The notes beneath the pieces were generated by a model, which saw nothing but the letters and a program-made list of their open reading frames with translations, was not told the origin of the DNA and made no database searches. Positions 3,444-64,000 of a stretch of DNA of 64,000 nt are shown one piece after another. The position numbers and the translations under genes were made by a program. The stretch lies in NCBI GenBank assembly GCA_964398815.1, contig CAYNNZ010000003.1, forward strand, positions 6,676 to 70,675, read 5' to 3'. The stretch is from an uncultured Candidatus Saccharibacteria bacterium. Lineage in GTDB: Bacteria > Patescibacteriota > Minisyncoccia > Phycocordibacterales > Phycocordibacteraceae. Numbering within the stretch: the first letter of the stretch is position 1; every line of letters begins with the position of its first letter.

Positions 3444-3445
3444 CC

Positions 3446-3991: not shown

Positions 3992-3993
3992 TC

Positions 3994-6701: not shown

Positions 6702-6858
6702 GTGCCTATCGCCCTTTTTTAAGGGCGGGCTAGTTTTTACGCTGTGTATTGAGCAGCGGAGACCCTTGAAATATGAATAGTTTGTCAACTCCGCAACAAG
6801 GTGTTGCGGAGGTAAGGTAGTGAACAAAGAAATCATTTCTTGTGTTCCGCCTATTCTT

Positions 6859-8320
<1,462 letters not shown>

Positions 8321-8942: not shown

Positions 8943-9018
8943 GCATGCTTAGCTCAGTTGGTAGAGCACTCGACTGATACTCGAGCGGTCCTAGGTTCGA
9001 ATCCTAGAGCATGCACCA
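8943..9018 (+). tRNA. tRNA-Ile (anticodon GAU), CCA encoded
   Basis: Manual cloverleaf: acceptor GCATGCT/AGCATGC, D-arm GCTC-AGTTGGTA-GAGC, anticodon arm CTCGA-CTGATAC-TCGAG (U33, GAT, A37), variable loop CGGTC, T-arm CTAGG-TTCGAAT-CCTAG, discriminator A, CCA. Total 76 nt. Confidence 0.9.
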
Positions 9019-39941: not shown

Positions 39942-42116
39942 ATGGTGGCAGGGGTGGTATCATCTGCCCATATGACCATGAAGGACTTAGCCCGCTGGGC
40001 CGTGTATGTGCCGCTGTTTATCATCCCGTTCATTCCGCTCTATGTCGCGAACGACCTATTTTTCCCTTTCATAACCGGAAAGGGATTTGCGTTCCGCATA
40101 CTCGCTGAAATAGCGCTCGCTGGCTACGTAGTCCTCGCGATGGCCGATGCACGGTACCGTCCGCGATTCTCATGGGTCTTCGTCCTCTATGGCGCGTTTA
40201 TCCTCTGGATGCTTATTGCGGACCTCGCTGGCATGAATCCGCATAAGGCGCTCTGGAGCAACTTCGAGCGCATGGAGGGCTGGGTCACGCTCATACACGT
40301 CTTCATGTTCTTCCTCGTGTCAGGCGCGGTCTTCTCGACCGATAAGCTTTGGCGCAAGTGGTGGCTCACCTTCATCGGCGCTTCCGCGCTCCTGTGCTGC
40401 TACTGCCTCCTCCAGCTTTCAGGCGCAATCACCATCCATCAGGGAGGGGTGCGCGTCGACGGTACATTTGGAAACGCGGCATATCTCGCGGCATATCTTC
40501 TCTTCGCTGCGGCAGTGACCATCTGGCAGGCGCTTGAATCTAAGGAGTGGATGCGTTACTCACTTCTCGTCCTTGCCGCATTCCAAATCATCATTATCTT
40601 CTTCACTGCAACGCGCGGTGCCGTACTCGGCCTTGTCGGAGCAGGCCTCGTGGGCGGCATTCTCTGGGCGGTAGAAGCAGGAGGGAAATCCCGCAAGATA
40701 GCGGCCGGCATCGTGGGAATCATCATCCTCATGGCGGGAGGATTCTACCTCATAAAGGACAGTCAGTTCGTAAAGTCTGAGCCTACACTCGACCGCATCT
40801 CCTCCATCTCGCTCAAGGACCTCTCGGTGCGCTCGACCCTCTGGGGCATGGCCCTTAAGGGAGTCGCAGAGCGTCCGGTATTCGGTTGGGGTCAGGAAGG
40901 ATTCAATTACATATTCAATAAGTACTACGAGCCATCCCTCTATGCGCAGGAGCCGTGGTTCGATCGTGCCCACGATGTGTTCATCGACTGGCTCGTCGCA
41001 GGCGGCATCCCCGGATTCCTCCTCTTCCTCGGGGCATTCGCAACTGCCATCTGGGCCCTCTATCGGGGCGGGGCATCGCGTGAGGAGCGCATCCTGCTCA
41101 TCTCTGCACTCGTAGCCTATGGCATTCAGGGCATTGTGGTGTTCGATAACCTCTTTACCTATGTGCCGCTCGCAGCCATACTCGCGACTGCGCACACCGC
41201 GCGCAGCAAACCATGGAAGAAACTCGAGGCCATGCCGAACGCCGGCGAACCGACGCTTCAGATGGCGCTTCCGGTCGCAGCGGTCCTTGGCATTGCGCTC
41301 ATCTGGGTGGTAAACGTTCCGAACATTGCGGCAGCATACTCACTCGTTCGCGCTATTAGCATCACCAGCAATGACCTCGGCCCGAACGTCGCCTACTTCC
41401 AGAAGGCACTCGCTGAGCCGACTTTCGCCAAGCAGGAGGTCCGTGAGCAGTTGGTTATCTTCTCGAGTAATATCGCAGCAGCGCTCGCGAGCGCGCCGAC
41501 GAAGGAACTCGCTCAGGTGACCGGACTCGCACTTGATGAGATGGGTAAGGAGATTGAGTCTCAACCGAATGACGCGCGCCTGCGCCTCGAGTACGCACTT
41601 GGCTATCGTGTGACGGGTGACTATACGAGCGCGCTCAAGCAGATTGCCATTGCGCATCAGCTCTCTCCTCGCAAACAGTCCATCCTCATCGAGCAAGGCA
41701 TTGAGTACTGGCAGGTAGGCGAATTCGCGAAGGCGAAGGAAGCCTTTGACCTCGCATACTCAGTAGACCCATCGTTCGAAGCGCTCGCGGCATACGCTGC
41801 TGCCGGTACGATTGCGGCAGGGGACCTCGAGGGCGGTCGTGCCCAGCTGCTTGAGCGTACGGGCACCACTACCATCGATAACGAAGCGCTCGTCCTCGCG
41901 TACTATCAGGCGAAGGATTACACCGACCTCATCCTCGTGCTACAGGAACAGGTCCGTAAGCAGAATGGCTCGCCAGAATCCCGGTTCCGACTCGCCGCAG
42001 CGCTCGCTGCCGCAGGACGCACCGCCGAGGCGCGCCTGGAGGTATCGAAAGCAGTCGCCGAGCATCCTGAAATGGCGGCGCAGGCAGCCGAGTTCGTAAA
42101 GCATCTACCGAACTAA
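39942..42116 (+). CDS. O-antigen ligase/polymerase (Wzy_C)-family membrane protein with C-terminal TPR repeats
   Basis: About 10 TM with a large periplasmic loop (…FFTATRGAVLGLVGAGL… Wzy_C-like). C-terminal about 250 aa are TPR-like Ala-rich repeats. The start could be ATG 39972/39978. Confidence 0.6.
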   Translation: MVAGVVSSAHMTMKDLARWAVYVPLFIIPFIPLYVANDLFFPFITGKGFAFRILAEIALAGYVVLAMADARYRPRFSWVFVLYGAFILWMLIADLAGMNPHKALWSNFERMEGWVTLIHVFMFFLVSGAVFSTDKLWRKWWLTFIGASALLCCYCLLQLSGAITIHQGGVRVDGTFGNAAYLAAYLLFAAAVTIWQALESKEWMRYSLLVLAAFQIIIIFFTATRGAVLGLVGAGLVGGILWAVEAGGKSRKIAAGIVGIIILMAGGFYLIKDSQFVKSEPTLDRISSISLKDLSVRSTLWGMALKGVAERPVFGWGQEGFNYIFNKYYEPSLYAQEPWFDRAHDVFIDWLVAGGIPGFLLFLGAFATAIWALYRGGASREERILLISALVAYGIQGIVVFDNLFTYVPLAAILATAHTARSKPWKKLEAMPNAGEPTLQMALPVAAVLGIALIWVVNVPNIAAAYSLVRAISITSNDLGPNVAYFQKALAEPTFAKQEVREQLVIFSSNIAAALASAPTKELAQVTGLALDEMGKEIESQPNDARLRLEYALGYRVTGDYTSALKQIAIAHQLSPRKQSILIEQGIEYWQVGEFAKAKEAFDLAYSVDPSFEALAAYAAAGTIAAGDLEGGRAQLLERTGTTTIDNEALVLAYYQAKDYTDLILVLQEQVRKQNGSPESRFRLAAALAAAGRTAEARLEVSKAVAEHPEMAAQAAEFVKHLPN

Positions 42117-48679: not shown

Positions 48680-49570
48680 ATGGATGAGCTAACCCTAGAC
48701 AACAAGAAGTATCTCTCGTCGAAGCAAGCGGCTAAGGTAACCGGCTACGCGAAGGATTATGTGGGTCAGCTCTGTCGCGAAGGGCGCATCGATGCCCGCC
48801 TTGTGGGACGCAATTGGTATGTCCTCGAATCATCAATACTCGAGCATCGATTCGGGGCGGAAGATAAGAAAGATCAGGAAGTAAAGGCTGAAATTAAGCC
48901 GCAGACTGCGTGGGAGACGCCTCGCTACATCGCAGAGCCGGCACAGACCGTACCTGAACTTTCGCCTAAACCTGCTGAATTCACCTCCGCGCCGCCAACT
49001 TCTACAGCATCCGTGACCCCAGAGGTACGCTCTACGCTTACTGATATGCAGTCAGCGTGGCAGGAATGGTTCCAAACCCAAGGAAATAAGGAGGAAAAAG
49101 CGCTTCCCGATGCCAGCGAAATGCTCCTTGAGGACCATGAGGAGCCTTCCTTTACCCAAGATGACGTACTAGAAACGTCTGAGGTGGCTGACCATTTCGT
49201 AGAAACAGAGGTAGAAGAGGAAGCTGAACCCATACATATAGCCCGCATTCGCCCGGAACCGCCCGTGATGAGGCGAGAAGCCTCGTACACGATGGGAGAG
49301 CCGCTACGCCTACAACGACGCGAGGAGGACTATCAGGAGGTCATTGAAGAGCGTCCTCAAAGACGTTCGGCAAGGCAGATTGCTTCAGTCGAACGCCCGC
49401 AGAAACGGAATTTGATACTGAACGCACTCCTTATATCTGCTGCAGGACTGGCAATAGTAATAGCCACCCTAGGCTCAGGAGCAATCGACGCATGGGTAGG
49501 TAGCGGGGGATGGGCAAATCCAGTGACTAACTTCCTCACAGGCACTAACGTCGTAGATATCAACAGGTAG
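48680..49570 (+). CDS. Single-pass membrane protein with an N-terminal excisionase/MerR-like HTH (HTH_17-like), an acidic disordered linker and a C-terminal TM
   Basis: N-terminus SSKQAAKVTGYAKDYVGQLCREGRIDARLVGRNWYV; Glu/Asp/Pro-rich middle; TM LILNALLISAAGLAIVIATLG near the C-terminus. The N-terminal module recurs at the start of the giant gene downstream. Confidence 0.5.
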   Translation: MDELTLDNKKYLSSKQAAKVTGYAKDYVGQLCREGRIDARLVGRNWYVLESSILEHRFGAEDKKDQEVKAEIKPQTAWETPRYIAEPAQTVPELSPKPAEFTSAPPTSTASVTPEVRSTLTDMQSAWQEWFQTQGNKEEKALPDASEMLLEDHEEPSFTQDDVLETSEVADHFVETEVEEEAEPIHIARIRPEPPVMRREASYTMGEPLRLQRREEDYQEVIEERPQRRSARQIASVERPQKRNLILNALLISAAGLAIVIATLGSGAIDAWVGSGGWANPVTNFLTGTNVVDINR

Positions 49571-50182
49571 GCTCTATCTCATCTCGTAGAGACGAGATAG
49601 AATAAATACCAGAGGGAGAAGGTGATTTGAAAACCATACAAAAAAGGCGCTGCAAGAATCATGCGGGGCTCTTATAGCTTGGTAGGGCAGTACGCTCTAT
49701 AAGGCGTTATAAGGCCTCTGGTGGAGTTTGGGTGTAGGAACTAAGAATTGTGCGGCACGGATTTCTACTCAGAGTCGATCAACGAACTCATACGGTAATG
49801 AAAGTTACCGCGATGAGGACCCGAACGCTCTGAATAACCCTCAGTGTTACTCGCAACAGAGGAAATAAAGTTCGCACAATATTCTTTACTGCATGAATGT
49901 ACGCACTTCGTTGTAATTCCTCATTTCTGCACACAATAAGCTGATTGCGGCCGCAGATGACAGCCACAGTAGCCCTGTAAAGGTCTTATACGCCATCAAA
50001 ATCGCATTACTGTACGTTGAGATGGGCGTAAGTGAACGTAGATGTGTCGATGAGCGAACGCACGTGAGTTTCGCTCTCGCGGTAGCTCTTAGAAAGATGA
50101 ATTGCAGATGAAAGTTATACCCAGCGAAATGCTTCGAAGCATCCGATATCTCTACTAAAATATAGAGAAGTCGGAACTTTAC

Positions 50183-53100
50183 ATGCCTCCCTCGCTCGAT
50201 ACAAACTTCATCCCAAATAGGGAAGCATCGGAGACATCCGGATACCATCAGGACTATCTCGCGCGCCTCTGCCGCGAAGGAAAGGTCGAAGGAGTTCAGG
50301 TCGGTCGCGCGTGGCACATCAATCGCCACTCGCTTCTCAAGTTCATCCGCGAGCAGGAGGTGCGCAAGCACGAGTTGGCTGAGCAGCTCTCTCGCACACG
50401 CAAGCAAACACTTGCTCAGGCTGCGCCGGTATTCACGGCGCCACTGGTCACGGTCGAAGCGCCTGCTCCTGCAACTCCTGTCGTCCCGTCGCCCTACTCT
50501 CCTACGCCCTCAGGTATTTGGTTCTACCGGAGTGCTACAGGAGTGGCGGTTTTACTGCTTATTTTGACGAACCTGCATCCGATAAGCACTCAATTTGCAC
50601 TCGATGGGGCGCTCAATCGCGAAGCTGCTCGGCTCGGAGGAGCGTTCGGCTTCGGTCATGACCTCGCGCTTGTGCCTGCCACTTCGACCGCGCAGATGTC
50701 GCCCCGAACAATGGCGTACGGCAACACGTCGCAGGCAATCTACCAGCAGTTCTATGTAAACGGCGCTTCGACTGAATACGTAAATGCGTACGTTGCGGCC
50801 TACGTTTCTTCCGCACTGAAAGACATCGTAGCGAAGGTTGGCGCGCAGGTGCTTGATGGTCGCGGCGTATCGCATGCAACGTCCGGCTCAACTAATTCGG
50901 TTGCGGTTGATCTCACGAACATCAGTGGTTCGACGATTACGAACTCGACGTTCAGTGGTTCGGTAAACGCGACGACCGTGAATGTTGCAACGCTTACGGT
51001 ATCTGGCACTGCTACATTTGCAACGACTTCGACCTCGGGTCCGGCAACCTTCACCGGAACGACCACTATCTCTGGTCCGCTGGTCATAGGCGGATTGAAT
51101 GGAGTCACCGAATGTCTGCATGTTGATGCGAATGGCGTTGTGTCCGGAACCGGAATCGATTGTGGAAGTGGCGGCGGCGGACTCACCGGACTTAAGGGGC
51201 AGTACTCATCGCTTCAGACCGGAGCGATTCAGACGTTTGCCACCTCGAGCGACACGAACATCGGACTCACTATCACGTCGGCCGGCGACGTGCATACCTT
51301 CACGCCGACCTGGATAGGAACGCTCGGCGTCAATCGGGGCGGTACTGGTCTTGCAACGCCGCCGACGTATGGCCAGTTATTACTCGGGAATGGCGGAGGC
51401 GGGTATGCACTCGCCGCAACATCAACGCTCGGCATTTCGTCCTCGGATATCACCGAGGGCTCGAAACTTTTTTATACTGACGGTCGCGTCGCTACGTACC
51501 TCAACACCGTCGCGAAGGAATACTTCTTTGCAACCACATCTGCCGATTTCTGGCAGAGTCAGCGTGACCTCTTCTCTACCTCTAGTGCGGCCTATTTCCT
51601 AGCTCAAAACCAGGGTAACGCGTTCTCCTCCACCTCCGCGTCTTACTTCCTCACGCAGAACCAAGGTGCCGCATTCTCAACCACGTCAGCGAATCACTGG
51701 CTGACTACCAAGTCGACTTCGAACCTCGCAGAGGGTTCGAATCTCTACTTCACCGACGCACGCGTGCAAACGTACCTCGATACGATTTCAAAGGGATACT
51801 TCTACTCCACCACCTCGAGCGACCACTGGCTGACTACCAAAACGACCGACAATCTTGCGCAGGGCTCGACGAACAAGTACTACAACGACTCGCTCGTAAA
51901 TACATTTGTTGGTGCATCCAGCACCATTGCGAAAACATTTACCACGAACGTCTTCACCGCACTCAACTCGTTCACGGGTGGTCTCGCAATCGGTGCTCTC
52001 AACGGTCCGCTTCAGGTAAACAATGGCGTCGTGTCGGCAACGACATCGATCGGAGTTCTCTACGGGGGTACGGGCTCGACGACACTCACTGGACTCCTAA
52101 AGGGTAACGGTACGAGCCAGGTACTCACTGCAGTTGCAGGTACTGACTATCAGGCCCCTATTACGCTCACCACGACAGGTACTTCTGGTGCGGCTACCTT
52201 TATAGGTAATACACTCAACATCCCGCAGTACTCGGGTACGACCTACACGGGTACCTACCCGGTACAGGTATCGGGCTCCGTCATCTCGCTTGCGTTCGGC
52301 ACCTCAACGAGTAACACCTGGGGTGGCACGCAGACCTTCACGAATACTCCGGTACTCGGAACGCTTTCGGGTCTTGTCGGCGCGAACAACGGCGCGCTTT
52401 ATCAGGTCGCAACGACGACGCTCTACGGTACTGGGGCAGGCGGCCAGGTTCTCACCTGGAATAACGGGGCACCGCAGTGGGTCGCGACGACTACTTATTC
52501 CGCTGGTTCCGGCATCTCAACGTCGTTCGCAGCAGGGAACCTGACTATTTCAAACACTGGCGTCCTCGCCATTGGCCCTACTGGACAGACACAGACTGGA
52601 ACCGTCACCGTCGCTTCCTCGACTGCAGGTACTGACTTCACAGTCACTGCATCCGCTGGAACCATTACGTTCAACCTCCCGACTGCCTCCGCATCGAATC
52701 GCGGTCTGCTTTCCTCAACGGACTGGACCACCTTCACCAATAAGCAGGCAGCACTCACGTTTACGTATCCGCTCGTGAATTCAGCGAACACCGTCTCGCT
52801 CGCGTTCGGTACGACCACCACAAATGCGTGGTCGTCGCTCCAGACGTTTAATGGTGGATTCATTGCGCAAGGCTCGACCACGATTGCGGGTGATCTCACA
52901 GTCTCGGGCAATGCAACTACCACGAACGCAACGACGACGAACCTCTATGTCTCAACGTCGATACGCGGCGGCGGTCTAACCTCCTGTTCGTTCTCGAGCG
53001 ATAAGCTGCTCTACAACTCGACCACCGGACAGTTCTCCTGCGGTGCTGACGCAGGTGCCGGTGGCGGCATTACCGCACTTAAGGGGCAGTATTCAAGCGC

Positions 53101-56100
53101 GCAGACGGGAAGCACACAGACGTTTGCAACATCATCTGACACCAACCTCGGTCTCACCATCACGAGCGCAGGCGACACGCATACCTTCACGCCGGTATGG
53201 ATTGGTACGCTCGCGGTAAACAGGGGAGGTACGGGCCAGAGCTCATTTACTTCCGGACAGCTTATCTATGGAAACGGGACGAACGCACTCACGAGCGTCG
53301 GCACCACCAGCGAAACACTCTCAGCAGAATTTGCGTTTAGCGGCACGCTCGGAGCGCTCGTCGGCGGCACTTCCGGCACACTCTCACTCGCAACCAACGG
53401 CGTAGCGTACAGCAAGCTCGCACAGGCAGCAGCGAATACAATTCTGGGGAATCCGACTGGCGCAACCGGAAACATCGTTGCGTTCGCCACCTCCTCGCTT
53501 GGCATCGCGCTTGCTGATACGACTGGCACGCTCACGGTCGCGCGCGGTGGCACGGGCACCACTACCGCGCCGGCAGGACAAATCATCTATGGCGGTGGGG
53601 CAGGCGTGTATCAGTCAGCTGCGACCGGTACCGTTGCTGCAGGCAGTGGTGTAAGCGTCACGGCGGGGCAGTCGGTCATCGGCGCTGGTCTCACTATCAC
53701 GAACACTGGCGTCCTCGCAGTCGGTCCAGTGGGCCAGACGACTAGCGGAACCGCGCTTTTCGCTACCTCAACTGCAGGCACCGATTTCACCATCACTGGC
53801 GCGGGCTCGACCATCACCTTCAATCTGCCGACCGCGTCAGGATCTGCACGTGGCCTCCTCTCATCTTCCGACTGGACCACCTTCAACAACAAGCAGGCAG
53901 CACTCACGTTTACGTATCCGCTCGTAAACACCGGTAATACGGTCAGCATCGCCTTCGGCACTACCACCTCGAACACGTGGGCAGGTACGCAAACCTTTAC
54001 GAACGCACCAGTACTCAGCTCGCTCTCGGGAGTCATCTATGGAAATAACGGAACGCTCGCAACGGCAGCAACCTCATCAATTGCAGTCTCTGGCGCGTTC
54101 AATTACTCAGGCACGCTCGGTACGTTTGTCGGCGGTACTAATGGCACGCTCTCGCTCGCAACCAACGGTGTCGCACTCACGAATCTCGCACAGATTGCCG
54201 CGAACTCAGTACTCGTAAACAACACTAGTGCAACGGGTAACGTAACGACAATCGCAACGAGTACATTCTTCGGTCTGGGGAATGGCGGCCAGGTCCTCAC
54301 CTGGAATAACGGGGTGCCGCAGTGGGTAGCAACGACAACGTACGCTGCAGGTACGGGTATCTCTACCTCATTCGCTGCTGGTCAGCTCACCATCACCAAC
54401 ACTGGCATTACGTCGCTTCAGCAGACAGGAGGCGGCTCCGCACAGACGGGTGCCATCACGTTCGCCACTTCGTCAGTTACGAATAATGGCGTGACGATTG
54501 GTCTCAACGTCACGAACGTCGGCGGCGCATTCACTTTCACACCCACGCGTTCTGGTACGCTCACTGCAGCAGGAGGCGGCACCGGCTTCGCATCCTACAC
54601 ACCGGGTGACATCCTCTATGCAGACACGGCAACGACATTCGCTCGCGCAGCGTCTTCGACGGACGGCTTCGTACTCGCGCTCGCAAATGGCAAGCCAACC
54701 TGGGTCGCGACCACAACGCTCTCCACCATCAGCGGCACGCTCGGTGTCACTAAGGGCGGCACGGGCCTTACCTCCATCGCTTCCTCCTCGCTCCTTATCG
54801 GTGGACCGGGTAATACTTTCATCGGTTACGCGACCTCATCGCTCGGCATCGCGCTCTCTGACACGACCGGAACACTCACGATTGTTCGTGGCGGTACCGG
54901 CACTACCACTGCTCCAGTGGGCCAGCTTATCTACGGAGGGGCAACCTCATACCAGAGCGTTGCAACCGGCACAGTCGCTTCAGGCTCAGGCATAAGCGTC
55001 ACAGCAGGGCAGGCAATCATCGGCTCTGGCCTCACCATCACCAACACCGGCCTCCTCTCACTTCAGCAGCTTGGTGGCGGTTCTGCACAGACGGGTGCAG
55101 TCACGTTCGCAACGTCGTCGCAGACGACTAACGGCCAGACAATCGGTCTCAACATCACCAACACCGCAGGTGCCTTCACTTTCGCACCTACCATCGGCGG
55201 CACCCTCACGGTCGCCGGTGGGGGAACCGGCCAGACCTCCTTCACCGCAGGGCAAATTCTCTATGGAAACGGCACGAACGGTCTCACTTCAGTGGGTACC
55301 ACATCCGAGACTCTTTCGTCTGAATTCTCATACTCAGGTACTCTCGGCGCACTCGTTGGCGGCTCTTCCGGAACGCTCTCCCTTGCCACCAACGGCGTTG
55401 CGCTTAACAAACTGGTTCAGGTTGGAGCAAACACTATCCTGGGCAACAACACGGGCGCGACCGGAAACGTCGTCGCATTCGCAACCTCGACGCTCTTTGG
55501 TACCGGCACGAACGGATTTGTTCTCGCTGTCGTAAACGGTATTCCGACCTGGACCGCCACCTCGTCCATCAATAACGGTGTCTCGTCGATTCAGCAGACC
55601 GGTGGTGGCACCGCACAGACCGGTGCGATTACATTCGCAACATCATCTGTCACGAACAACGGCGTCACTATCGGCCTCAACATCACGAACACCGGTAGCG
55701 CATTCACGTTCGCTCCGACACGCTCGGGTACGCTCACGGTGGCAGGTGGCGGCACCGGAGTCGGTTCCTTCACTGCAGGCCAGCTCATCTATGGAAACGG
55801 AACGAATAACCTCACTTCAGTAGCGACCACCACCATTGCGGTCTCGGGTGCCTTCAACTACTCAGGAACGCTTGGAGCGCTTGTGGGAGGCACAGGGGGC
55901 ACTCTCTCGCTTGCCACCAACGGCGTTGCACTCACGAACATCGCGCAGATTGCAGCCAACTCGATTCTTGCGAACGGTACCGGCGCGACTGGAAACGTCA
56001 CCGCGCTCGCAACCTCCTCCCTCGGTATCGCTCTTAGTGACACCACCGGCACCCTCCTAGCCGCTCGTGGCGGCACCGGCTTCGCCTCATACACTCCAGG

Positions 56101-59100
56101 CGACATTCTCTACGCAGACACCGCCGCATCACTTGCACGCGTTGCATCCTCAACTGACGGATTCATCCTCGGTCTCGCAAACGGCAAGCCAACCTGGGTC
56201 GCCACTACCACGCTTTCCTCAATCACCGGCACGCTCGTAATCGCGAAGGGAGGTACCGGCACCACCACGGCACCTTCTGGCCAAATCCTCTATGGCGGTG
56301 GGGCAGGCGTGTATCAGTCAGCTGCGACCGGTACCGTTGCTGCAGGCAGTGGTGTAAGCGTCACGGCGGGGCAGTCGATTATCGGTTCCGGTCTCACCAT
56401 CACGAACACGGGCGTCACTTCGATTCAGCAATCATCCGGTTCCGCGCAGACCGGTGCCATCACGCTTGCGACCTCATCAGCGGTCTCGTTCAACGGACTT
56501 ACGTTCACCAACTCCATCACTAACTCTTCGGGAACCTTCACCTTCACCCCGGCACTTTCTGGCACCCTCACGGTTGCAGGAGGCGGCACGGGTGTCTCGT
56601 CCTTCACCGCAGGTCAGCTCGTATATGGAAATGGCACGAACAACCTGACTTCAGTCGCAACCAGCTCACAGACTCTTTCTGCAGAATTCTCTGATACCGG
56701 CACCTTCGGTGCACTCGTTGGCGGCACCTCTGGAACCCTCTCGCTTGCCACCAACGGCGTTGCATACAGCAAACTCGCTCAGGCAGCCGCAAACACCATC
56801 CTCGGCAATCCGACTGGCGCGACCGGAAACCTCCAGGCATTCGCAACCTCATCGCTTGGTATCGCGCTTGCTGACACTACTGGAACGCTCTCGGTCGCTC
56901 GTGGCGGCACCGGTTCCACCACGCTCTCCGGCATCCTCCGTGGCAACGGCACTGGCCAAGTCAGTACCCTCATCGTCGGCTCCGGCCTCACCTTCGATGG
57001 CACCACGCTCGCAACCAGCGGCTCCGGCATCACCTCCATCGGTGCAGCAGGGCAGCTCCAGTCAGGGGGTACTCAGACCTTCGCAACCTCAACCGGCTCA
57101 TTCAACGGCCTCACGCTCGGCATGACGGTGGTCTCCTCTGCAAACACCCACACCTTCACGCCTTCCATCACCGGCACCCTCGGTGTTGCGGGAGGTGGCA
57201 CGGGCGCAGCATCCTTTACCGCAGGAGCTCTCGTGTATGGTGCAGGCACGGGTGCACTTCAGACAGTCGGCACCTCAACCGAAACCCTCTCCTCTGAATT
57301 TGCATACTCGGGAACACTCGGCGCGCTCGTGGGTGGTTCTTCCGGAACACTCTCACTCGCAACCAATGGTGTCGCACTCAACAAGCTCGTACAGGTTGGT
57401 GCAAACACCATCCTTGGCAACAACACTGGTGCGACCGGAAACGTCGTGGCGTTTGCAACCTCAACACTCTTTGGTACGGGAGTGGGTGGGCAGGTGCTGA
57501 CGTGGAGCAATGGGGTGCCGCGTTTTGTCGCGACGACGACCTTCTCTGCACCGCTCGCGTTCGCAAACGGCAATGTAACCATTACGCAGGCAGGTACGGG
57601 AGCAGACGGATACCTCTCGTCTACCGACTTCGCAACATTCAATAATAAAGTTTCTTCCACCTCGCTCTCCGCAACCTATCCGCTCGCATACAACAGCGCG
57701 ACCGGAGTCTTCACGACCGCGTTCGGCACCACGACCAGCAACACATGGGCTGGCACGCAGACGTTCACGAATACCATCAAGGTCGGCAGTCTCACCGGGT
57801 TCATTGCGGGTAATGCAGGTACGCTCTACCAGATCGCAAGCTCGTCTCTGAATCTCCCCACAAGCGCGCTCGCGAGCCAGAACGTAAGCCAGTTCACGAA
57901 CGATGCTGGGTATCTCACGCCGACATGGACCACGACTATTGATGCGGCGAACAACACCCTGAACAACGTAAACATGCTGACGTTCTACAACGGCGCTACA
58001 CGGCTCCTTAACGTCACCGACGTCTACAACAAGCAAGGACTCCGTATCGCAGATGGGTTCAGTCCAACCAATCGCGCCGACCTCTTCCCGTACTACCGCG
58101 ATGGGGGAGCGGCATTCCAGGCGGGCGATATCCTCGTCGCAAGCTCAAGCGGCGCCTACTATGCAGCAGCTACCTCAACACTTGGCTTTGAATCGGCGCT
58201 GACTTTCTCCTCGCCGCTTACACGAACCGGGAACACGGTAGGTATTCAGGTCGCAAACGGTTCACAGAACGGCTATCTCTCCTCGAGCGACTGGACGACC
58301 TTCAGTAGCAAGCTCTCTGCCTATGACGCATGGAGTCATCCGAGCGCAGGAGTTTCGGCGACAACAAGCGGCCTCATAATCACCGCGTCTTCGACTATCG
58401 GTAACGGTAGTCCAGCGGGCGGACTCACCATTGCCGGAAACTCGACTACGACCGGCATCGCAATCGCATCAGCCTTCGCTGGAAATGGAACGAATAATTC
58501 GCTCCTTACCCAGAACGGCATCGAGGTAGCGGTCATAGATACCAGTGCCACTACTATTGCGCTCGGTCTCTATAACAACTCATCAAGCGGGGCGAACAGT
58601 TCAGCGGTCGGTCTCAATAACAATGCTTCAGGCGGGTCATACAATAGCGCGTTCGGATTCGGTAATACTTCGTCTGGGTATCTTTCGTCCGCATTCGGCT
58701 CGCAGAACGTTGCCTCGAACAATACCTCCGGAGCATTCGGAGCAAGTAACAACGTCTCCGGAGTACAGGCATACGCGTTCGGCTATGCGATCACAAACGC
58801 CATCGACAACACGGTGATGATTGGTCCAAGCGATGCAGCGAAGGTAACTATTCGCAACACTGGAAAGGTCGGTATCGGAACCACCACACCGACCGCACAG
58901 CTGGAAGTCGAGAACGACACCAATGCTCTCGCACTCCTGCTGACCGTCCGCAACAATTACGGAACGACCGGATCTGCCGGCTCCCGTATCGGATTCGGCG
59001 TACACCGCGACATAGACCCAACAGCACTCGGCGCATCCATCGATGCCATCAACAAGGCTGGAGTTAATAATGGCGATATCGCACAGGGAGCAGACCTTGT

Positions 59101-62100
59101 ATTCAACACGAGCCCTGACGCGACGCTCGGTCTAGCGGAGCGCCTACGCATTACAAATGTGGGGGATGTGGGCGTAGGCACAAACACTCCAAGTGCGCGC
59201 CTCTCTGTGCAGGGTAATGGTCTCTTCTCAGGCAATCTTGCTGCCGCAGGACTCACGGCTACTGGCACCGTCGCTTTCACGAATCTCTCCTCGGGCCTCG
59301 TAGGCTCAAACAACGGAACGCTCTACTCGCTTGCCACCTCGACCAGTTTCGTAACGAGCGTTGTTGCTGGAACCGGCATTAATGTCTCGGGTGCGACTGG
59401 CGCAGTCACTATTTCAAATAGCGGACTACTTTCACTCCAGCAGTTGGGTGGCGGTTCTGCTCAGACCGGAGCAATCACGTTTGCCACTTCGTCTGTCACG
59501 AACAACGGCGTCACCATCGGCCTCAACATCACCAATTCCGCTGGTGCCTTCACGTTCACCCCAACGCGCTCGGGTACGCTCACGGTTGCAGGAGGGGGCA
59601 CGGGTGCAGCGTCATTCACTGCCGGACAAATTCTCTATGGTAATGGCACCAATGCACTCTCCTCAGTTGGCACAACGACGGAAACCCTCTCCTCTGAATT
59701 TGCATACTCCGGAACCCTCGGTGCACTCGTGGGTGGTTCTTCTGGCACACTCTCACTTGCCACCAACGGCGTCGCACTCAACAAGCTCGTTCAGGTAGGA
59801 GCAAACACCATTCTGGGCAACAACACTGGTGCGACCGGAAACGTCGTGGCGTTTGCAACCTCAACACTCTTTGGTACGGGAGTGGGTGGGCAGGTGCTCG
59901 CTATCGTCAACGGGGTACCGAACTGGGTTGCCACCTCCTCAATCAACAATGGGGTATCAAGCATCCAGCAGCTTGGTGGTGGCTCTGCTCAGACTGGTGC
60001 CATCACCTTCGCTACTTCGTCTGTCACGAACAACGGCGTGACGATTGGTCTCAACATCACGAACTCGGGCGGTGCCTTCACCTTCACTCCAACGCGCTCG
60101 GGTACGCTCACGGTCGCCGGTGGCGGTACTGGATTCGCTTCCTACACGCCTGGCGACATCCTCTACGCCGACACCGCAACCTCATTCGCAAAGGTCTCTT
60201 CAACCACTGATGGGTTTGTCCTCGCGCTCGCAAATGGCAAACCGACCTGGGTCGCATCCACGACGCTCTCGACCATCACCGGTACGCTCGGTGTCACCAA
60301 GGGCGGTACAGGCCTTACTTCAATCGCATCGTCCTCGCTCCTCATCGGTGGACCAGGTAATACCTTCATCGGTTATGCGACCTCATCGCTCGGCATCGCG
60401 CTTACCGACACCACTGGTACGCTCTCAATTGCTCGTGGCGGCACCGGCACCACTACTGCACCAGCAGGCCAAATCCTCTACGGCGGTGGGGCAGGTGTGT
60501 ATCAATCGGTCGCAACCGGCACAGTCGCAGGCGGTACGAACATCAGTGTGACCGCAGGGCAGTCGGTCATTGGTTCTGGACTCACCATCGGTATCACGGG
60601 GCAGATAGGAGTGGGGAATGGAGGCACCGGTGTTGGCAGTTTCACTGCTGGACAGATTCTCTACGGTAATGGTACGAACGCACTCACGTCTGTCGCGACG
60701 ACTTCCATCGCTGTCTCCGGCGCATTCAACTATTCAGGAACGCTTGGGGCTCTCGTAGGCGGCACAGGCGGCACCCTCTCCCTCGCAACTAACGGTGTCG
60801 CACTCACCAACATCGCGCAGATTGCAGCCAACTCGATTCTCGCGAATGGTACTGGCGCAACCGGCAACGTCACTGCACTCGCAACCTCTTCTCTCGGCAT
60901 CGCACTCACTGACACCACGGGCACTCTTGCCGTAAACCGTGGCGGCACTGGATTCGCCTCGTACACGCCGGGTGACCTGCTCTACGCAAATTCCGGAACG
61001 ACCTTCGCCAAGGTTTCTTCTTCCACTGATGGCTTCGTGCTTGGCCTCGCAAATGGCAAGCCGACCTGGGTCGCAACCTCTACTCTCGCCACCATCAGCG
61101 GCTCCCTTAATCTCGGTTCACAAGTAACGGGCACCCTTGGCGTTACTAACGGCGGCACCGGTTCCACCACGCTCTCCGGCATCCTCCGTGGCAACGGCAC
61201 TGGCCAAGTCAGTACCCTCATCGTCGGCTCCGGCCTCACCTTCGATGGCACCACGCTCGCAACCAGCGGCTCCGGCATCACCTCCATCGGTGCAGCAGGG
61301 CAGCTCCAGTCAGGGGGTACTCAGACCTTCGCAACCTCAACTGGCTCATTCAATGGACTCACGCTCGGCATGACCATCGTATCGAACTCGAATACGCACA
61401 CGTTTACTCCATCCATCTCCGGCACGCTCGGGGTCGCGGGCGGAGGAACCGGGGTAGGTACCTTCACTGGTGGTCAGCTTATTTATGGAAATGGCACAAA
61501 CGCTCTCACGTCTGTCGCAACCTCATCTCTCGCAGTCTCAGGCGCCTTCTCGTACTCAGGCACGCTCGGCGCTCTCGTTGGAGGAGCAGGTGGCACCCTC
61601 TCACTCGCCACCAACGGTGTTGCGCTCACGAACCTCGCTCAGATTGCAGCAAACACCATCCTCGCGAATCCGACGGGTGCAACTGGTAACGTGCAGGCAG
61701 TTGCAACCTCAACCCTCTACGGCACTGGGGCAGGCGGACAGGTGCTCACCTGGAATAACGGCGCACCGCAGTGGGTCGCAACCACCACATACTCGGGAGG
61801 AAGTGGTATCAGCACATCGTTTGCAGCAGGGAACCTGACCATCACGAACACTGGTCTCCTCTCACTCCAGCAGTTGGGTGGCGGTTCTGCACAGACCGGT
61901 GCAATCACGTTCGCAACGTCGTCGCAGACCACGAACGGTCAGACGATTGGGCTTAATATCACGAACACTGGCGGTGCCTTCACCTTCAGTCCAACCATCT
62001 CTGGTGTGCAGACCGTCGCAGGCGGCGGCACCGGCGTTGGTTCCTTCACCGCCGGACAGCTCATATACGGAAACGGAACGAACAATCTGACTTCAGTCGG

Positions 62101-64000
62101 CACCACGACGGAGACCCTCTCCTCTGAGTTCTCATACTCTGGCACCCTCGGTGCACTGGTCGGTGGTTCTTCCGGCACACTCTCACTCGCAACCAACGGT
62201 GTCGCACTCAACAAGCTCGTACAGGTCGGAGCAAACACCATTCTGGGCAACAACACGGGTGCAACTGGAAACGTGGTTGCCTTCGCAACTTCAACACTCT
62301 TCGGTACCGGCACTGGAGGACAGGTCCTCGCTATCTCAAACGGTGTTCCGACTTGGATTGCATCCACCACCTACGCAAACGGCTCAGGCATCTCGACCTC
62401 GTTCGCGGCAGGACAGCTCACGATTACAAACACTGGTGTCACTGCAGTAGGTCCGACCGGTCAATCAATTACTGGAGGTGTGGTGGTCGCATCCTCCACC
62501 TCAACGACTAACGGCATCACGTCGGCAATCACGGTTGTTGGCTCTGGCCAAAATCTGACCTTCACACCTTCGCAGTCCGGCACGCTCACAGTCGGAGGTG
62601 GGGGAACGGGACAGACGTCGCTTGCTTCAGGTCAGCTTATCTATGGTGCAGGCACCGCGGGTGTTCAGTCAGTTGCAACCTCATCTCTCGCAGTCTCAGG
62701 CGCCTTCTCGTACTCAGGCACGCTCGGTGCACTCGTCGGAGGAGCTGGCGGCACCCTCTCGCTTGCCACCAACGGTGTTGCGCTCACCAACATCGCGCAG
62801 ATTGCGGCGAACTCAGTCCTCGTGAACAACACCTCTGCTACGGGCAACGTGACTGCAATCGCCACCTCCACCTTCTTCGGAGTCGGCACCGGCGGTCAGG
62901 TACTCGCTATCGTCAACGGCGTACCGAACTGGGTTGCTACCTCCTCAATCAACAATGGGGTATCAAGCATCCAGCAGCTTGGTGGTGGCTCTGCTCAGAC
63001 GGGTGCCATCACGTTTGCCACTTCGTCCGCAACTCTGAACGGCCAAACTCATGGCCTCAACATCACGAACTCTGGCGCAGCCTTCACCTTCACACCGACG
63101 CTCTCCGGCACGCTTACGGTCGGAGGTGGCGGTACTGGATTCGCTTCATACACCCCAGGCGACATTCTTTACGCCGACACCGCAACCTCATTCGCAAAGG
63201 TCTCCTCAACGACCGACGGTTTCGTACTCGCTCTCGCAAATGGCAAACCAACCTGGGTCGCTTCCACGACACTCTCGACCATCACCGGCACGCTCGGCGT
63301 AACGAAGGGTGGTACGGGTCTCACTTCAATCGCATCTTCCTCACTCCTTATTGGTGGACCAGGCAACACGATCATCGGCTACGCGACCTCATCGCTCGGC
63401 ATCGCCCTTACCGACACCACTGGGACACTCGGTGCAACTCGCGGAGGCACCGGTCTTACGACCATTGCATCCTCCTCCATCCTCATTGGAGGAGCAGGGA
63501 ACACATGGCTCCAGTACGCAACGTCCTCCCTCGGTATTAATCTCTCTGACACGGTCGGAACACTCACGGTTGGTCGTGGCGGCACCGGCGTCGGTTCCTT
63601 CACCGCCGGCCAGCTCATCTATGGCAACGGCACCAACAACCTGACATCGGTCAGTACTTCATCTCTCGCCGTCTCTGGCGCCTTCTCGTACTCAGGCACC
63701 CTTGGCGCTCTCGTCGGAGGTTCTGGTGGCACCCTCTCCCTCGCCACCAACGGTGTTGCGCTCACGAATATCGCGCAAATCGCAGCGAATTCGGTACTTG
63801 TGAACAACACCAGCGGTACGGGCAACGTGACCGCAATCGCTACCTCCACATTCTTCGGCGCAGGAACCGGTGGCCAGGTGCTCACCTGGAACAACGGCGT
63901 ACCGCAATGGGTCGCAACCACCACCTACGCAAACGGCTCCGGCATCTCGACCGCGTTTGCTGCAGGGCAGTTGACCATCACCAACACCGGCCTCCTCTCA
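50183..64000 (+). CDS. 5' part (at least 4,606 codons, no stop in the window) of a giant repetitive Gly/Thr/Ser-rich surface protein gene: HTH-like N-terminus, one TM, modular repeats, central tail-fibre/YadA-head-like region
   Basis: Manual translation from ATG 50183 (in-frame TAA at 50156-50158 upstream) to base 64000 is open throughout. It is not in the ORF track because it lacks a stop inside the window. Recurrent modules include GTLTVAGGGTG..SFTAGQLIYGNGTN.LTSV, GTLGALVGGSSGTLSLATNGVALNKLVQVGANTILGNNTGATGNVVAFATS, GQVLTWNNG.PQWVATTTY and FASYTPGDILYADTAT…GKPTWVA. Confidence 0.8.
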   Translation, partial: MPPSLDTNFIPNREASETSGYHQDYLARLCREGKVEGVQVGRAWHINRHSLLKFIREQEVRKHELAEQLSRTRKQTLAQAAPVFTAPLVTVEAPAPATPVVPSPYSPTPSGIWFYRSATGVAVLLLILTNLHPISTQFALDGALNREAARLGGAFGFGHDLALVPATSTAQMSPRTMAYGNTSQAIYQQFYVNGASTEYVNAYVAAYVSSALKDIVAKVGAQVLDGRGVSHATSGSTNSVAVDLTNISGSTITNSTFSGSVNATTVNVATLTVSGTATFATTSTSGPATFTGTTTISGPLVIGGLNGVTECLHVDANGVVSGTGIDCGSGGGGLTGLKGQYSSLQTGAIQTFATSSDTNIGLTITSAGDVHTFTPTWIGTLGVNRGGTGLATPPTYGQLLLGNGGGGYALAATSTLGISSSDITEGSKLFYTDGRVATYLNTVAKEYFFATTSADFWQSQRDLFSTSSAAYFLAQNQGNAFSSTSASYFLTQNQGAAFSTTSANHWLTTKSTSNLAEGSNLYFTDARVQTYLDTISKGYFYSTTSSDHWLTTKTTDNLAQGSTNKYYNDSLVNTFVGASSTIAKTFTTNVFTALNSFTGGLAIGALNGPLQVNNGVVSATTSIGVLYGGTGSTTLTGLLKGNGTSQVLTAVAGTDYQAPITLTTTGTSGAATFIGNTLNIPQYSGTTYTGTYPVQVSGSVISLAFGTSTSNTWGGTQTFTNTPVLGTLSGLVGANNGALYQVATTTLYGTGAGGQVLTWNNGAPQWVATTTYSAGSGISTSFAAGNLTISNTGVLAIGPTGQTQTGTVTVASSTAGTDFTVTASAGTITFNLPTASASNRGLLSSTDWTTFTNKQAALTFTYPLVNSANTVSLAFGTTTTNAWSSLQTFNGGFIAQGSTTIAGDLTVSGNATTTNATTTNLYVSTSIRGGGLTSCSFSSDKLLYNSTTGQFSCGADAGAGGGITALKGQYSSAQTGSTQTFATSSDTNLGLTITSAGDTHTFTPVWIGTLAVNRGGTGQSSFTSGQLIYGNGTNALTSVGTTSETLSAEFAFSGTLGALVGGTSGTLSLATNGVAYSKLAQAAANTILGNPTGATGNIVAFATSSLGIALADTTGTLTVARGGTGTTTAPAGQIIYGGGAGVYQSAATGTVAAGSGVSVTAGQSVIGAGLTITNTGVLAVGPVGQTTSGTALFATSTAGTDFTITGAGSTITFNLPTASGSARGLLSSSDWTTFNNKQAALTFTYPLVNTGNTVSIAFGTTTSNTWAGTQTFTNAPVLSSLSGVIYGNNGTLATAATSSIAVSGAFNYSGTLGTFVGGTNGTLSLATNGVALTNLAQIAANSVLVNNTSATGNVTTIATSTFFGLGNGGQVLTWNNGVPQWVATTTYAAGTGISTSFAAGQLTITNTGITSLQQTGGGSAQTGAITFATSSVTNNGVTIGLNVTNVGGAFTFTPTRSGTLTAAGGGTGFASYTPGDILYADTATTFARAASSTDGFVLALANGKPTWVATTTLSTISGTLGVTKGGTGLTSIASSSLLIGGPGNTFIGYATSSLGIALSDTTGTLTIVRGGTGTTTAPVGQLIYGGATSYQSVATGTVASGSGISVTAGQAIIGSGLTITNTGLLSLQQLGGGSAQTGAVTFATSSQTTNGQTIGLNITNTAGAFTFAPTIGGTLTVAGGGTGQTSFTAGQILYGNGTNGLTSVGTTSETLSSEFSYSGTLGALVGGSSGTLSLATNGVALNKLVQVGANTILGNNTGATGNVVAFATSTLFGTGTNGFVLAVVNGIPTWTATSSINNGVSSIQQTGGGTAQTGAITFATSSVTNNGVTIGLNITNTGSAFTFAPTRSGTLTVAGGGTGVGSFTAGQLIYGNGTNNLTSVATTTIAVSGAFNYSGTLGALVGGTGGTLSLATNGVALTNIAQIAANSILANGTGATGNVTALATSSLGIALSDTTGTLLAARGGTGFASYTPGDILYADTAASLARVASSTDGFILGLANGKPTWVATTTLSSITGTLVIAKGGTGTTTAPSGQILYGGGAGVYQSAATGTVAAGSGVSVTAGQSIIGSGLTITNTGVTSIQQSSGSAQTGAITLATSSAVSFNGLTFTNSITNSSGTFTFTPALSGTLTVAGGGTGVSSFTAGQLVYGNGTNNLTSVATSSQTLSAEFSDTGTFGALVGGTSGTLSLATNGVAYSKLAQAAANTILGNPTGATGNLQAFATSSLGIALADTTGTLSVARGGTGSTTLSGILRGNGTGQVSTLIVGSGLTFDGTTLATSGSGITSIGAAGQLQSGGTQTFATSTGSFNGLTLGMTVVSSANTHTFTPSITGTLGVAGGGTGAASFTAGALVYGAGTGALQTVGTSTETLSSEFAYSGTLGALVGGSSGTLSLATNGVALNKLVQVGANTILGNNTGATGNVVAFATSTLFGTGVGGQVLTWSNGVPRFVATTTFSAPLAFANGNVTITQAGTGADGYLSSTDFATFNNKVSSTSLSATYPLAYNSATGVFTTAFGTTTSNTWAGTQTFTNTIKVGSLTGFIAGNAGTLYQIASSSLNLPTSALASQNVSQFTNDAGYLTPTWTTTIDAANNTLNNVNMLTFYNGATRLLNVTDVYNKQGLRIADGFSPTNRADLFPYYRDGGAAFQAGDILVASSSGAYYAAATSTLGFESALTFSSPLTRTGNTVGIQVANGSQNGYLSSSDWTTFSSKLSAYDAWSHPSAGVSATTSGLIITASSTIGNGSPAGGLTIAGNSTTTGIAIASAFAGNGTNNSLLTQNGIEVAVIDTSATTIALGLYNNSSSGANSSAVGLNNNASGGSYNSAFGFGNTSSGYLSSAFGSQNVASNNTSGAFGASNNVSGVQAYAFGYAITNAIDNTVMIGPSDAAKVTIRNTGKVGIGTTTPTAQLEVENDTNALALLLTVRNNYGTTGSAGSRIGFGVHRDIDPTALGASIDAINKAGVNNGDIAQGADLVFNTSPDATLGLAERLRITNVGDVGVGTNTPSARLSVQGNGLFSGNLAAAGLTATGTVAFTNLSSGLVGSNNGTLYSLATSTSFVTSVVAGTGINVSGATGAVTISNSGLLSLQQLGGGSAQTGAITFATSSVTNNGVTIGLNITNSAGAFTFTPTRSGTLTVAGGGTGAASFTAGQILYGNGTNALSSVGTTTETLSSEFAYSGTLGALVGGSSGTLSLATNGVALNKLVQVGANTILGNNTGATGNVVAFATSTLFGTGVGGQVLAIVNGVPNWVATSSINNGVSSIQQLGGGSAQTGAITFATSSVTNNGVTIGLNITNSGGAFTFTPTRSGTLTVAGGGTGFASYTPGDILYADTATSFAKVSSTTDGFVLALANGKPTWVASTTLSTITGTLGVTKGGTGLTSIASSSLLIGGPGNTFIGYATSSLGIALTDTTGTLSIARGGTGTTTAPAGQILYGGGAGVYQSVATGTVAGGTNISVTAGQSVIGSGLTIGITGQIGVGNGGTGVGSFTAGQILYGNGTNALTSVATTSIAVSGAFNYSGTLGALVGGTGGTLSLATNGVALTNIAQIAANSILANGTGATGNVTALATSSLGIALTDTTGTLAVNRGGTGFASYTPGDLLYANSGTTFAKVSSSTDGFVLGLANGKPTWVATSTLATISGSLNLGSQVTGTLGVTNGGTGSTTLSGILRGNGTGQVSTLIVGSGLTFDGTTLATSGSGITSIGAAGQLQSGGTQTFATSTGSFNGLTLGMTIVSNSNTHTFTPSISGTLGVAGGGTGVGTFTGGQLIYGNGTNALTSVATSSLAVSGAFSYSGTLGALVGGAGGTLSLATNGVALTNLAQIAANTILANPTGATGNVQAVATSTLYGTGAGGQVLTWNNGAPQWVATTTYSGGSGISTSFAAGNLTITNTGLLSLQQLGGGSAQTGAITFATSSQTTNGQTIGLNITNTGGAFTFSPTISGVQTVAGGGTGVGSFTAGQLIYGNGTNNLTSVGTTTETLSSEFSYSGTLGALVGGSSGTLSLATNGVALNKLVQVGANTILGNNTGATGNVVAFATSTLFGTGTGGQVLAISNGVPTWIASTTYANGSGISTSFAAGQLTITNTGVTAVGPTGQSITGGVVVASSTSTTNGITSAITVVGSGQNLTFTPSQSGTLTVGGGGTGQTSLASGQLIYGAGTAGVQSVATSSLAVSGAFSYSGTLGALVGGAGGTLSLATNGVALTNIAQIAANSVLVNNTSATGNVTAIATSTFFGVGTGGQVLAIVNGVPNWVATSSINNGVSSIQQLGGGSAQTGAITFATSSATLNGQTHGLNITNSGAAFTFTPTLSGTLTVGGGGTGFASYTPGDILYADTATSFAKVSSTTDGFVLALANGKPTWVASTTLSTITGTLGVTKGGTGLTSIASSSLLIGGPGNTIIGYATSSLGIALTDTTGTLGATRGGTGLTTIASSSILIGGAGNTWLQYATSSLGINLSDTVGTLTVGRGGTGVGSFTAGQLIYGNGTNNLTSVSTSSLAVSGAFSYSGTLGALVGGSGGTLSLATNGVALTNIAQIAANSVLVNNTSGTGNVTAIATSTFFGAGTGGQVLTWNNGVPQWVATTTYANGSGISTAFAAGQLTITNTGLLS
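53586..53674 (+). repeat. 89-nt perfect repeat (copy 2 at 56289-56377)
   Basis: tctatggcggtggggcaggcgtgtatcagtcagctgcgaccggtaccgttgctgcaggcagtggtgtaagcgtcacggcggggcagtcg is identical in both copies. Confidence 0.8.
56903..57093 (+). repeat. 191-nt perfect intragenic direct repeat, copy 1 (copy 2 at 61151-61341)
   Basis: Base-for-base identical stretch ggcggcaccggttccaccacgctctccggc…ttcgcaacctcaac at offset 4,248 nt; it encodes an identical about 63-aa module (GGTGSTTLSGILRGNGTGQVSTLIVGSGLTFDGTTLATSGSGITSIGAAGQLQSGGTQTFATST). Confidence 0.85.
57416..57498 (+). repeat. 83-nt perfect repeat (copy 2 at 59816-59898) embedded in about 220 nt of about 90% identity
   Basis: ggcaacaacactggtgcgaccggaaacgtcgtggcgtttgcaacctcaacactctttggtacgggagtgggtgggcaggtgct is identical at an offset of exactly 2,400 nt. 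Confidence 0.85.
61151..61341 (+). repeat. 191-nt perfect intragenic direct repeat, copy 2
   Basis: See copy 1 (56903-57093). Confidence 0.85.

Follow-up and report, generated by a model that had tools for sequence, protein, structure and literature searches.

The end of a 64,000-nucleotide stretch of contig CAYNNZ010000003.1 from an uncultured Candidatus Saccharibacteria bacterium (this whole stretch is referred to here as the window) is occupied by a plus-strand reading frame that no stop codon closes, which raises the question as to whether it represents a real gene and, if so, what kind of protein it could encode. A preliminary description of this DNA had read it as a giant surface protein with a single membrane helix, one that an annotation based on open reading frames (ORFs) would miss. 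Our analysis shows that 50183-64000 is a genuine, selected coding gene of more than 4,600 codons, and we think it fairly probable that its product would be an inner-membrane-anchored and probably homotrimeric, phage-fibre-like adhesin of an ultra-small, patescibacterial (Candidate Phyla Radiation, CPR) cell.

Reading from the ATG at 50183 to base 64000 gives 13,818 nt or 4,606 sense codons with 0 stops, the frame ending on the last base, while the five other frames of the same interval contain 79-329 stops. From base composition 146 stops would be expected in the giant frame and the probability of finding none is ~2.7e-65, in full agreement with the stop-free frame described earlier. The ATG is preceded by an in-frame TAA at 50156-50158 and inspection of the sequence between the two found no ATG, GTG or TTG start. 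As had also been pointed out, the gene is missing from the mechanical ORF list, which over 50183-64000 holds short off-frame and antisense ORFs only, because that list leaves out any ORF extending past the window edge. The low-charge, G/T/S/A-rich body claimed for the protein is likewise evident in its composition (T 17.5, G 16.2, A 11.5, S 11.0, L 8.7, N 6.6 and V 6.5 %), with D+E+K+R together making up 4.4 %.

Assembly collapse or expansion of a much shorter repeat gene, a scenario that the preliminary description had left open, can be rejected for the first 6.5 kb of the gene (50183-56701), which is identical in independent assemblies: ten contigs (ENA, JGI, Logan) are contained base for base in the window, and they run from the upstream genes up to 56701. 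For the remainder it is unlikely given the divergence of the repeats. Exact DNA repeats of >=40 nt number only five in the giant gene, the longest being 191 nt, and the 12 copies of a 66-aa unit share 74% identity at the amino acid and 70% at the nucleotide level. Differences among these copies are distributed 849/634/2,413 over codon positions 1/2/3, and this third-position bias indicates old duplications that were kept by selection on the protein. All ten independent contigs end inside the giant gene; five Logan contigs stop at 52771, where the 31-mer that follows recurs at 53891, and we attribute the short-read breaks within the gene to such repeated 31-mers.

A gene call of 1,912 aa ending in a stop, found on contig L002 (JGI 3300045313 Ga0489987_000501), was considered as the true C-terminus and rejected. 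The contig is identical to the window up to 55911, where the sequence GTLSL continues in mid-motif with EW and a stop in place of ATNG, and the stop lies inside the last 215 nt of the contig (L002:15346-15560), which match nothing in the window. This could be a chimeric contig end, or it could reflect a subpopulation in which an insertion cuts the fibre short.

We regard it as extremely unlikely that the gene arose in assembly, through expansion of a repeat or as a chimera, or that it is the tail-fibre gene of a prophage and not a cellular gene. The breaks that every short-read assembly shows within the gene, which could be taken to favour such an origin, are explained by the repeated 31-mers, and its repeats are diverged; the stop after 1,912 aa in L002 sits in unrelated sequence that starts in mid-motif; and although units of the stalk do occur in a phage minor tail protein (see below), no phage genes were found near the giant gene and its flanking housekeeping genes are syntenic among relatives. 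In addition the frame is open across 13.8 kb and complete ORFs of the same architecture exist in other metagenome-assembled genomes, of ~5,040 aa in L011 and ~4,560 aa in L015.

What kind of protein the gene encodes can be approached first from its N-terminus (Table 1), for which a helix-turn-helix (HTH)-like fold had been suggested. This was borne out by a match of aa 14-58 to HTH_17 (PF12728), and HTH_17 was the only match when the whole giant protein and its unique regions were searched against Pfam, NCBIfam and PHROGs. The giant scores 17.4-25.4 bits against this family depending on the fragment, the gathering threshold being 27, and HTH_17 matches 23/23 aligned family N-termini at E<=0.01 with a best E of 3.4e-9. 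The N-terminal family profile also matches AM32 in the PDB (6G1T/4P0Y, E 5.6e-5). In the family alignment A2 there are 9 invariant and 10 near-invariant columns, the invariant residues being A15, G20, Y21, D24, Y25, R31, G41, W44 and S50, and the family box '...STKxASxxSGYxxDYLxRLCRxGKIxGxQVGRxW...SLxxF' followed by a charged helix is present in the giant. The single hydrophobic helix also stands, at aa 111-131. This segment is the most hydrophobic 19-mer of the protein, although its mean Kyte-Doolittle (KD) value of 1.54 is marginal, just below the classical cut-off of 1.6, and homologues have a hydrophobic segment of >=1.6 at the equivalent site (aa ~95-240).

The same N-terminus proved to be widespread. 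An exhaustive phmmer search with aa 1-135 matched 2,991 cluster representatives at E<=1e-3, of which 450 reach E<=1e-10. The 150 best include 24 proteins of 1,800-7,275 aa that begin with the box seen in the giant and continue in a body rich in T/G/S/A; with a single exception these 24 have a hydrophobic helix at aa ~95-240. The giants of L011, L012 and L015 share the N-terminus of the window giant. Homologues carry the names Patescibacteria, Paceibacterota, Parcubacteria, Kaiserbacteria or Saccharibacteria, which supports a patescibacterial affiliation; they are mostly 'partial' and often annotated as 'helix-turn-helix domain-containing' or 'tail fiber domain-containing', many with Peptidase_S74. 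On sequence grounds the anchor appears to define a large, undescribed protein family. A word-index homologue search returned no protein longer than ~1,560 aa and neither the giant itself nor its fragments, whereas the exhaustive search of representatives reached 7,275 aa, and giant proteins may thus be systematically under-reported by word-index search. Many other members with the HTH box are proteins of ~300 aa, and many of these (e.g. P0169, P0170, P0190, P0202) show two matched stretches, the main one from residue ~65-120, which may reflect a tandem or offset HTH like that of the two-repeat AM32.

The part of the ectodomain with detectable relatives is a unique cassette in its centre. Homologues of this cassette carry YadA_head, YadA_stalk and YadA_anchor, Collar and Peptidase_S74 domains, and it recurs several times within other giants of the family. 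Its YadA-type head repeats matched CbpF as a single sequence (phmmer against PDB; 9U93 E 2.3e-8, 9GH4 E 5.8e-7), homologues of this region carry PF05658, and it is the only confidently modelled part of the protein, as a beta-roll with a predicted local distance difference test score (pLDDT) of 83-89. The beta-helix region that follows resembles the mosaic adhesive trimer (MAT) fibres of Bdellovibrio bacteriovorus, with E 0.0027 against Bd2133 (8OND) as a single sequence and 1.2e-24 as profile A3, which also matches the MAT fibres 8OML, 8OJN and 8OL4 (E 2e-9 to 9e-7). The same region matches a 'tail fiber protein' of cyanophage S-TIM5 (tblastn E 2e-6) as well as pelagiphage virion and tail-fibre proteins. 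This cassette, the relationship to phage fibres, the size of the family and a conserved partner gene described below are additions to the preliminary description.

Two stalks flank the cassette. They are composed of about eight types of unit, each 45-110 aa long, that follow one another without a set order, and most units end in 'GTLxVxxGGTG'. Over the whole protein we counted 28 such ends, 30 GGTG anchors, 12 copies of the 66-aa 'GTLGALVGG...ATS' unit and 14 'NGxPxW' units among others. The shuffled modules of ~50-100 aa noted earlier are therefore real, but the repeats do not extend throughout: aa ~2541-3047 are unique, and the sequence of aa 132-320 and of stretches within 400-950 likewise occurs once or in few copies. 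The suggestion that the modules would adopt a beta-helix or solenoid fold was not confirmed. Structure prediction, which was limited to AlphaFold2 monomers, gave poor models (pLDDT 67 and 57) that are extended and rich in hairpins with a low predicted template modelling score (pTM 0.27-0.36), and Foldseek of the models against the PDB returned nothing at E<0.4. For a fibre that is oligomer-dependent, monomer models of this extended, hairpin-rich, low-pTM kind would be expected.

These models are also where a different organisation of the protein has to be weighed, namely a monomeric beta-solenoid or beads-on-a-string adhesin (FHA/CdiA, RTX/Bap-type) with the same anchor and the same adhesive role. 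We consider this rather unlikely. The stalk units match no trimeric structure, the model of a stalk super-module has self-contained beta-hairpin sheets at pLDDT ~80 and the YadA-like roll folds confidently as a monomer, all of which would suit a monomer; the pTM values, though, predict no compact monomer fold, the only parts with detectable homology match the heads of trimeric autotransporter adhesins (TAAs) and MAT fibres, which are trimeric (PMC10769870), and family members carry the intramolecular chaperones S74 and G2, which act on trimers.

The C-terminus of the giant lies outside the window. We searched Pfam with the final 950-1,000 aa of five giants, members of the family or relatives, including L011 and L015. 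Peptidase_S74 was found in two of the five (79 and 39 bits, the cut-off being 22), both among the three giant family members scanned over their last 950 aa. Bact_surface_Ig-like was present in four of the five C-termini, and there were weak matches to the Peptidase_G2 chaperone in L015 and to a C1q-like domain in L011. A filament that delivers a C-terminal toxin or lytic enzyme, in the manner of CdiA or Rhs proteins or of the giant predatory proteins of Omnitrophota, would leave its active part exactly in the section beyond the window, and in predatory bacteria giant genes have been connected with degradation of the cell wall (bioRxiv 10.1101/2023.11.21.568195). Yet the C-termini of the five relatives comprise S74, Ig-like, weak G2 and weak C1q-like domains with no toxins or hydrolases found by Pfam, and in the 4,606 aa seen no enzymatic domain was found (Pfam, NCBIfam, PHROGs), making a delivery filament very unlikely. 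A separate observation in L011 is that the gene directly after the ~5,040-aa giant (L011:17561-19912) encodes a 784-aa protein whose C-terminal ~300 aa closely resemble the C-terminal domain of that giant ('...TVDPVYTV(N/D)G..YATY..GM(I/V)G(V/I)KEE...RKVYLL...RVSYRMTAPRFD...'), and which has the appearance of a paralogous tip carried by a far shorter stalk.

The preliminary description had named a surface fibre, an adhesin and an S-layer-like protein side by side. The first two are supported by the homology of the cassette to trimeric adhesin heads and MAT fibres, by the S74 and Ig-like tips of the family and by the units shared with phage tails, while the third found no backing, as neither SLH nor any other S-layer domain was matched in the giant by Pfam or NCBIfam at E<=1. 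A structural component of the envelope, such as a subunit of an S-layer-like lattice or sheath with no specific adhesive role, could be thought of from the T/S/G-rich, low-charge composition and from the neighbouring envelope and polysaccharide genes (Wzy_C, Polysacc_synt, MurB). We give it little credence, given that the size of the protein (>4,600 aa) and its integral membrane anchor set it apart from lattice subunits and that its homologues are adhesive fibres and receptor-binding proteins of phages.

The adhesin that we favour would work as follows. The N-terminus would stay in the cytoplasm and the membrane as an uncleaved N-in signal-anchor, and the ectodomain of >=4,475 residues beyond it would be exported, presumably by Sec, to fold into a long, thin, beta-rich filament. 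With two mosaic stalks flanking a YadA/MAT cassette, this filament is built like a phage tail fibre or MAT fibre. It is most likely a homotrimer, because the solved structures that match the cassette are homotrimers and because S74 chaperones work on trimers. The tip of Bd2133 measures 142 A for 370 residues (PMC10769870), and at ~0.38 A per residue the fibre would be ~170 nm long or longer. It would thereby reach and bind the surface of a host or partner cell.

A number of points weigh against this interpretation. We infer the trimeric state, the surface location, the binding and the expression of the protein alike, and its homology to trimers is limited to ~250 residues of the central cassette. 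Profile A3 matches CbpF at E 1.6e-21, but as the profile includes YadA-like sequences this score arises partly by construction. The stalk units, which make up ~85% of the protein, match no Pfam or NCBIfam family and no solved structure, and the monomer model of the stalk is poor (pLDDT 67). The hydrophobicity of the anchor is marginal, as given above. The C-terminus, where an S74 chaperone, a tip domain or a toxin might lie, is beyond the window; an exact 40-mer probe at the 3' end (63940-63979) matched no metagenome contig, a protein search with the last 600 aa gave no near-identical fragment and a metagenome scan with the central region of the giant found nothing. Finally the collections searched hold no independent assembly of 56702-64000, so that the integrity of this part is drawn from the unbroken frame and the third-position signature of selection.

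In order to place the protein we compared it with known fibres. MAT fibres of B. bacteriovorus (Bd2133 8OND, Bd1334, Bd3182, Bd2439) have beta-helix units 'GxVGIGTxxP' that are homologous to those of the giant. Both they and the giant family are mosaic and swap tips, with S74 or non-S74 tips, both are related to phage tail fibres, and MAT fibres belong to a bacterium that lives on other bacteria. MATs are trimeric adhesive fibres (Caulton et al. 2024, PMC10769870) of ~1,000 aa that are secreted and have a conserved N-terminal surface-binding domain (PMC10769870). The giant is >=4.5x longer and would be anchored by a cytoplasmic HTH and a transmembrane (TM) helix, an HTH_17-TM arrangement set apart from the MAT N-terminal domain by its domain content and by the description of the latter in PMC10769870. 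Most of its length consists of stalk units without a MAT counterpart, and its MAT-like unit lies in mid-fibre and not near the tip.

With the TAAs (type Vc; YadA, UspA1, CbpF 9U93, BpaC) the giant has in common the YadA-type head repeats 'SxAFGxxNxAxG' and the general build of a long modular head-and-stalk fibre, which in TAAs serves adhesion and has homotrimeric heads. TAAs, however, start with a signal peptide and end in a YadA_anchor beta-barrel that sits in an outer membrane, whereas the anchor of the giant is N-terminal and predicted to sit in the cytoplasmic membrane, with ~110 aa of HTH and linker before the helix and no cleavable Sec signal peptide. YadA_anchor (PF03895) was absent from the 4,606 aa seen of the giant and from the last 1,000 aa of the L011 and L015 relatives. 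The host phylum is not known to possess an outer membrane.

Phage tail fibres and tailspikes with Peptidase_S74 (endosialidase of K1F, the fibre of cyanophage S-TIM5) also share units with the giant, and their S74 and Ig-like C-terminal modules occur in members of its family. The giant differs from them in being a core-genome gene of a cell with a membrane anchor, and in being several times longer than the phage fibres matched. A phage fragment (L019:28-7604, IMGVR_UViG_3300006030_000327) encodes, after a portal gene, a 1,517-aa protein that matches the PHROG 'minor tail protein' and carries the stalk unit 'GTLxVxGGTG-SFTxGQILYGNG'. It possibly comes from a phage of a patescibacterium, or it possibly testifies to the exchange of fibre modules between phages and cells; tblastn of 700 aa of stalk against the INPHARED phages gave no match. 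As far as its sequence allows it to be placed, the giant most resembles MAT fibres, TAAs and phage tail fibres, with homologous parts in each, and is a member of none. Our search of the literature did not find the HTH-anchored giant fibre family, its partner gene or its MAT/YadA/S74 composition described, and what we found on the CPR were generic remarks on large adhesin-like proteins only. In Parcubacteria repeat proteins of >1,500 aa have been read as adhesins (PMC4508563), and in Absconditicoccaceae large adhesin-like repeat proteins have been noted generically (PMC13059738).

The presence of an HTH in front of such a fibre raises the further question as to what it does there. The nearest solved structure is AM32, a small DNA-binding protein that is soluble, encoded on a plasmid and made up of two HTH repeats in tandem; the likeness lies in the sequence of the HTH box, and in contrast the giant has one HTH fused to a membrane anchor, with the second HTH found on its partner protein. 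A topology of an N-terminal cytoplasmic HTH, one TM helix and an extracytoplasmic domain is known from regulators of the ToxR/CadC type and from RodZ. Their HTH domains are OmpR-type in ToxR and XRE-type in RodZ, while that of the giant is of the HTH_17/excisionase class, and the outer domains of ToxR, CadC and RodZ are small sensors where that of the giant would be a fibre of 4,000+ aa. The HTH of the giant might serve as a passive anchor in the cytoplasm, pair with its counterpart on the partner protein or bind DNA. It is doubtful, though conceivable, that a functional HTH binds DNA or a cytoplasmic factor together with that of the partner and that the giant acts as a ToxR-like membrane-tethered contact sensor. 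Were this so, binding of a host at the tip would be coupled, possibly by force or by proteolytic release, to gene expression or to the positioning of DNA at the site of attachment, and a one-component 'adhesin-transcription factor' would be widespread in Patescibacteria.

The gene directly upstream encodes a short HTH-TM protein that is a conserved partner of the giant. It matches HTH_17 at E 6e-6 (26.8 bits, gathering threshold 27) and its N-terminus is paralogous to that of the giant (33% over 48 aa), and we propose that the protein may form part of the membrane anchor of the giant. The partner gene is unchanged on 20 contigs, and in L011, L012 and L015 a full-length orthologue immediately precedes the giant gene. 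GatB is found upstream of the pair in L011, L014 and L015, in L014 together with Obg, and relatives keep the succession of GatB, the short HTH-TM gene and the giant gene. In the window the genes upstream of the giant include those for a Wzy-like protein, MurB, SecA, Obg and GatB. This conserved order and these flanks indicate a core-genome cassette and not a prophage.

Between the partner and the giant lies an AT-rich leader, with an imperfect hairpin (CTATCTCATCTC-GTA-GAGACGAGATAG) just 3' of the stop codon of the partner. A consensus scan of 49571-50182 found no sigma-70-like promoter or intrinsic terminator, and no Rfam family was matched. The leaders of relatives are 549-851 nt long with a GC content of 35-38%, and their sequence is kept only between L011 and L012.

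Table 1 Features of the giant gene and its surroundings, with window coordinates and positions in the predicted protein
Feature	Residues	Window coordinates	Strand	Basis or remarks
Giant ORF		50183..64000	+	4,606 codons, 3' end open at window edge
Winged helix-turn-helix, HTH_17/excisionase type	14-58	50222..50356	+	PF12728, family profile
Charged helix (conserved 'QExRKxExAxxLSxxR') and Pro/Ala-rich linker	59-80 (helix), 81-110 (linker)	50357..50512	+	Alignment A2
Single hydrophobic anchor, GIWFYRSATGVAVLLLILTNL	111-131	50513..50575	+	Highest KD-19 in the protein
Membrane-proximal unique region	132-320	50576..51142	+	No internal repeats, no Pfam family
Stalk I, mosaic units ending 'GTLxVxxGGTG'	321-2540	51143..57802	+	Low-copy at aa 400-700 and 800-950
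Unique central cassette	2541-3047	57803..59323	+	No internal repeats
YadA-type head repeats, 'SSAFGxxNxAS' units	~2799-2869	58577..58789	+	phmmer against PDB
MAT-fibre/tail-fibre-like beta-helix, two 'G(K/D)VG(I/V)GT.TP.A.L.V' units	2882-3047	58826..59323	+	8OND homology
Stalk II, unit types of Stalk I, continues past the window	3048-4606+	59324..64000	+	Unit analysis
Short partner gene, 296 aa: HTH_17 box, acidic linker, C-terminal hydrophobic helix, ~20-aa tail		48680..49570	+	
AT-rich intergenic leader, 612 nt		49571..50182	+	GC 45% against 56% for the window

Further upstream in the window are genes of the envelope, among them Polysacc_synt (38595-39872, minus strand), a Wzy_C-TPR protein (39942-42116) and MurB. 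Beside these polysaccharide and envelope genes two adjacent ORFs of 557 and 301 aa (36051-38626) were without a Pfam match. The 16S rRNA gene (6856-8314) is followed by tRNA-Ile(GAT) at 8943-9018 and by coding ORFs from about 9395; no 23S rRNA was found anywhere in the 64-kb window and the rRNA operon appears to be unlinked.

Patescibacteria account for a large share of bacterial diversity and those that have been cultivated live attached to other microbes, yet the molecules of this contact, type IV pili excepted, are largely unknown. The locus described here provides a concrete and widespread candidate for such a contact molecule, with ~3,000 cluster representatives and members of up to 7,275 aa. 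Its family appears to combine parts of phage fibres, MAT fibres and YadA with a conserved HTH anchor in the cytoplasmic membrane, a conserved partner gene and a conserved position in the core genome. Giant genes of this type are systematically fragmented or lost: every short-read assembly broke within this one, stop-bounded ORF lists miss it and word-index searches returned proteins of <=~1,560 aa only. If the HTH does signal, adhesion in these organisms would be linked directly to gene regulation.

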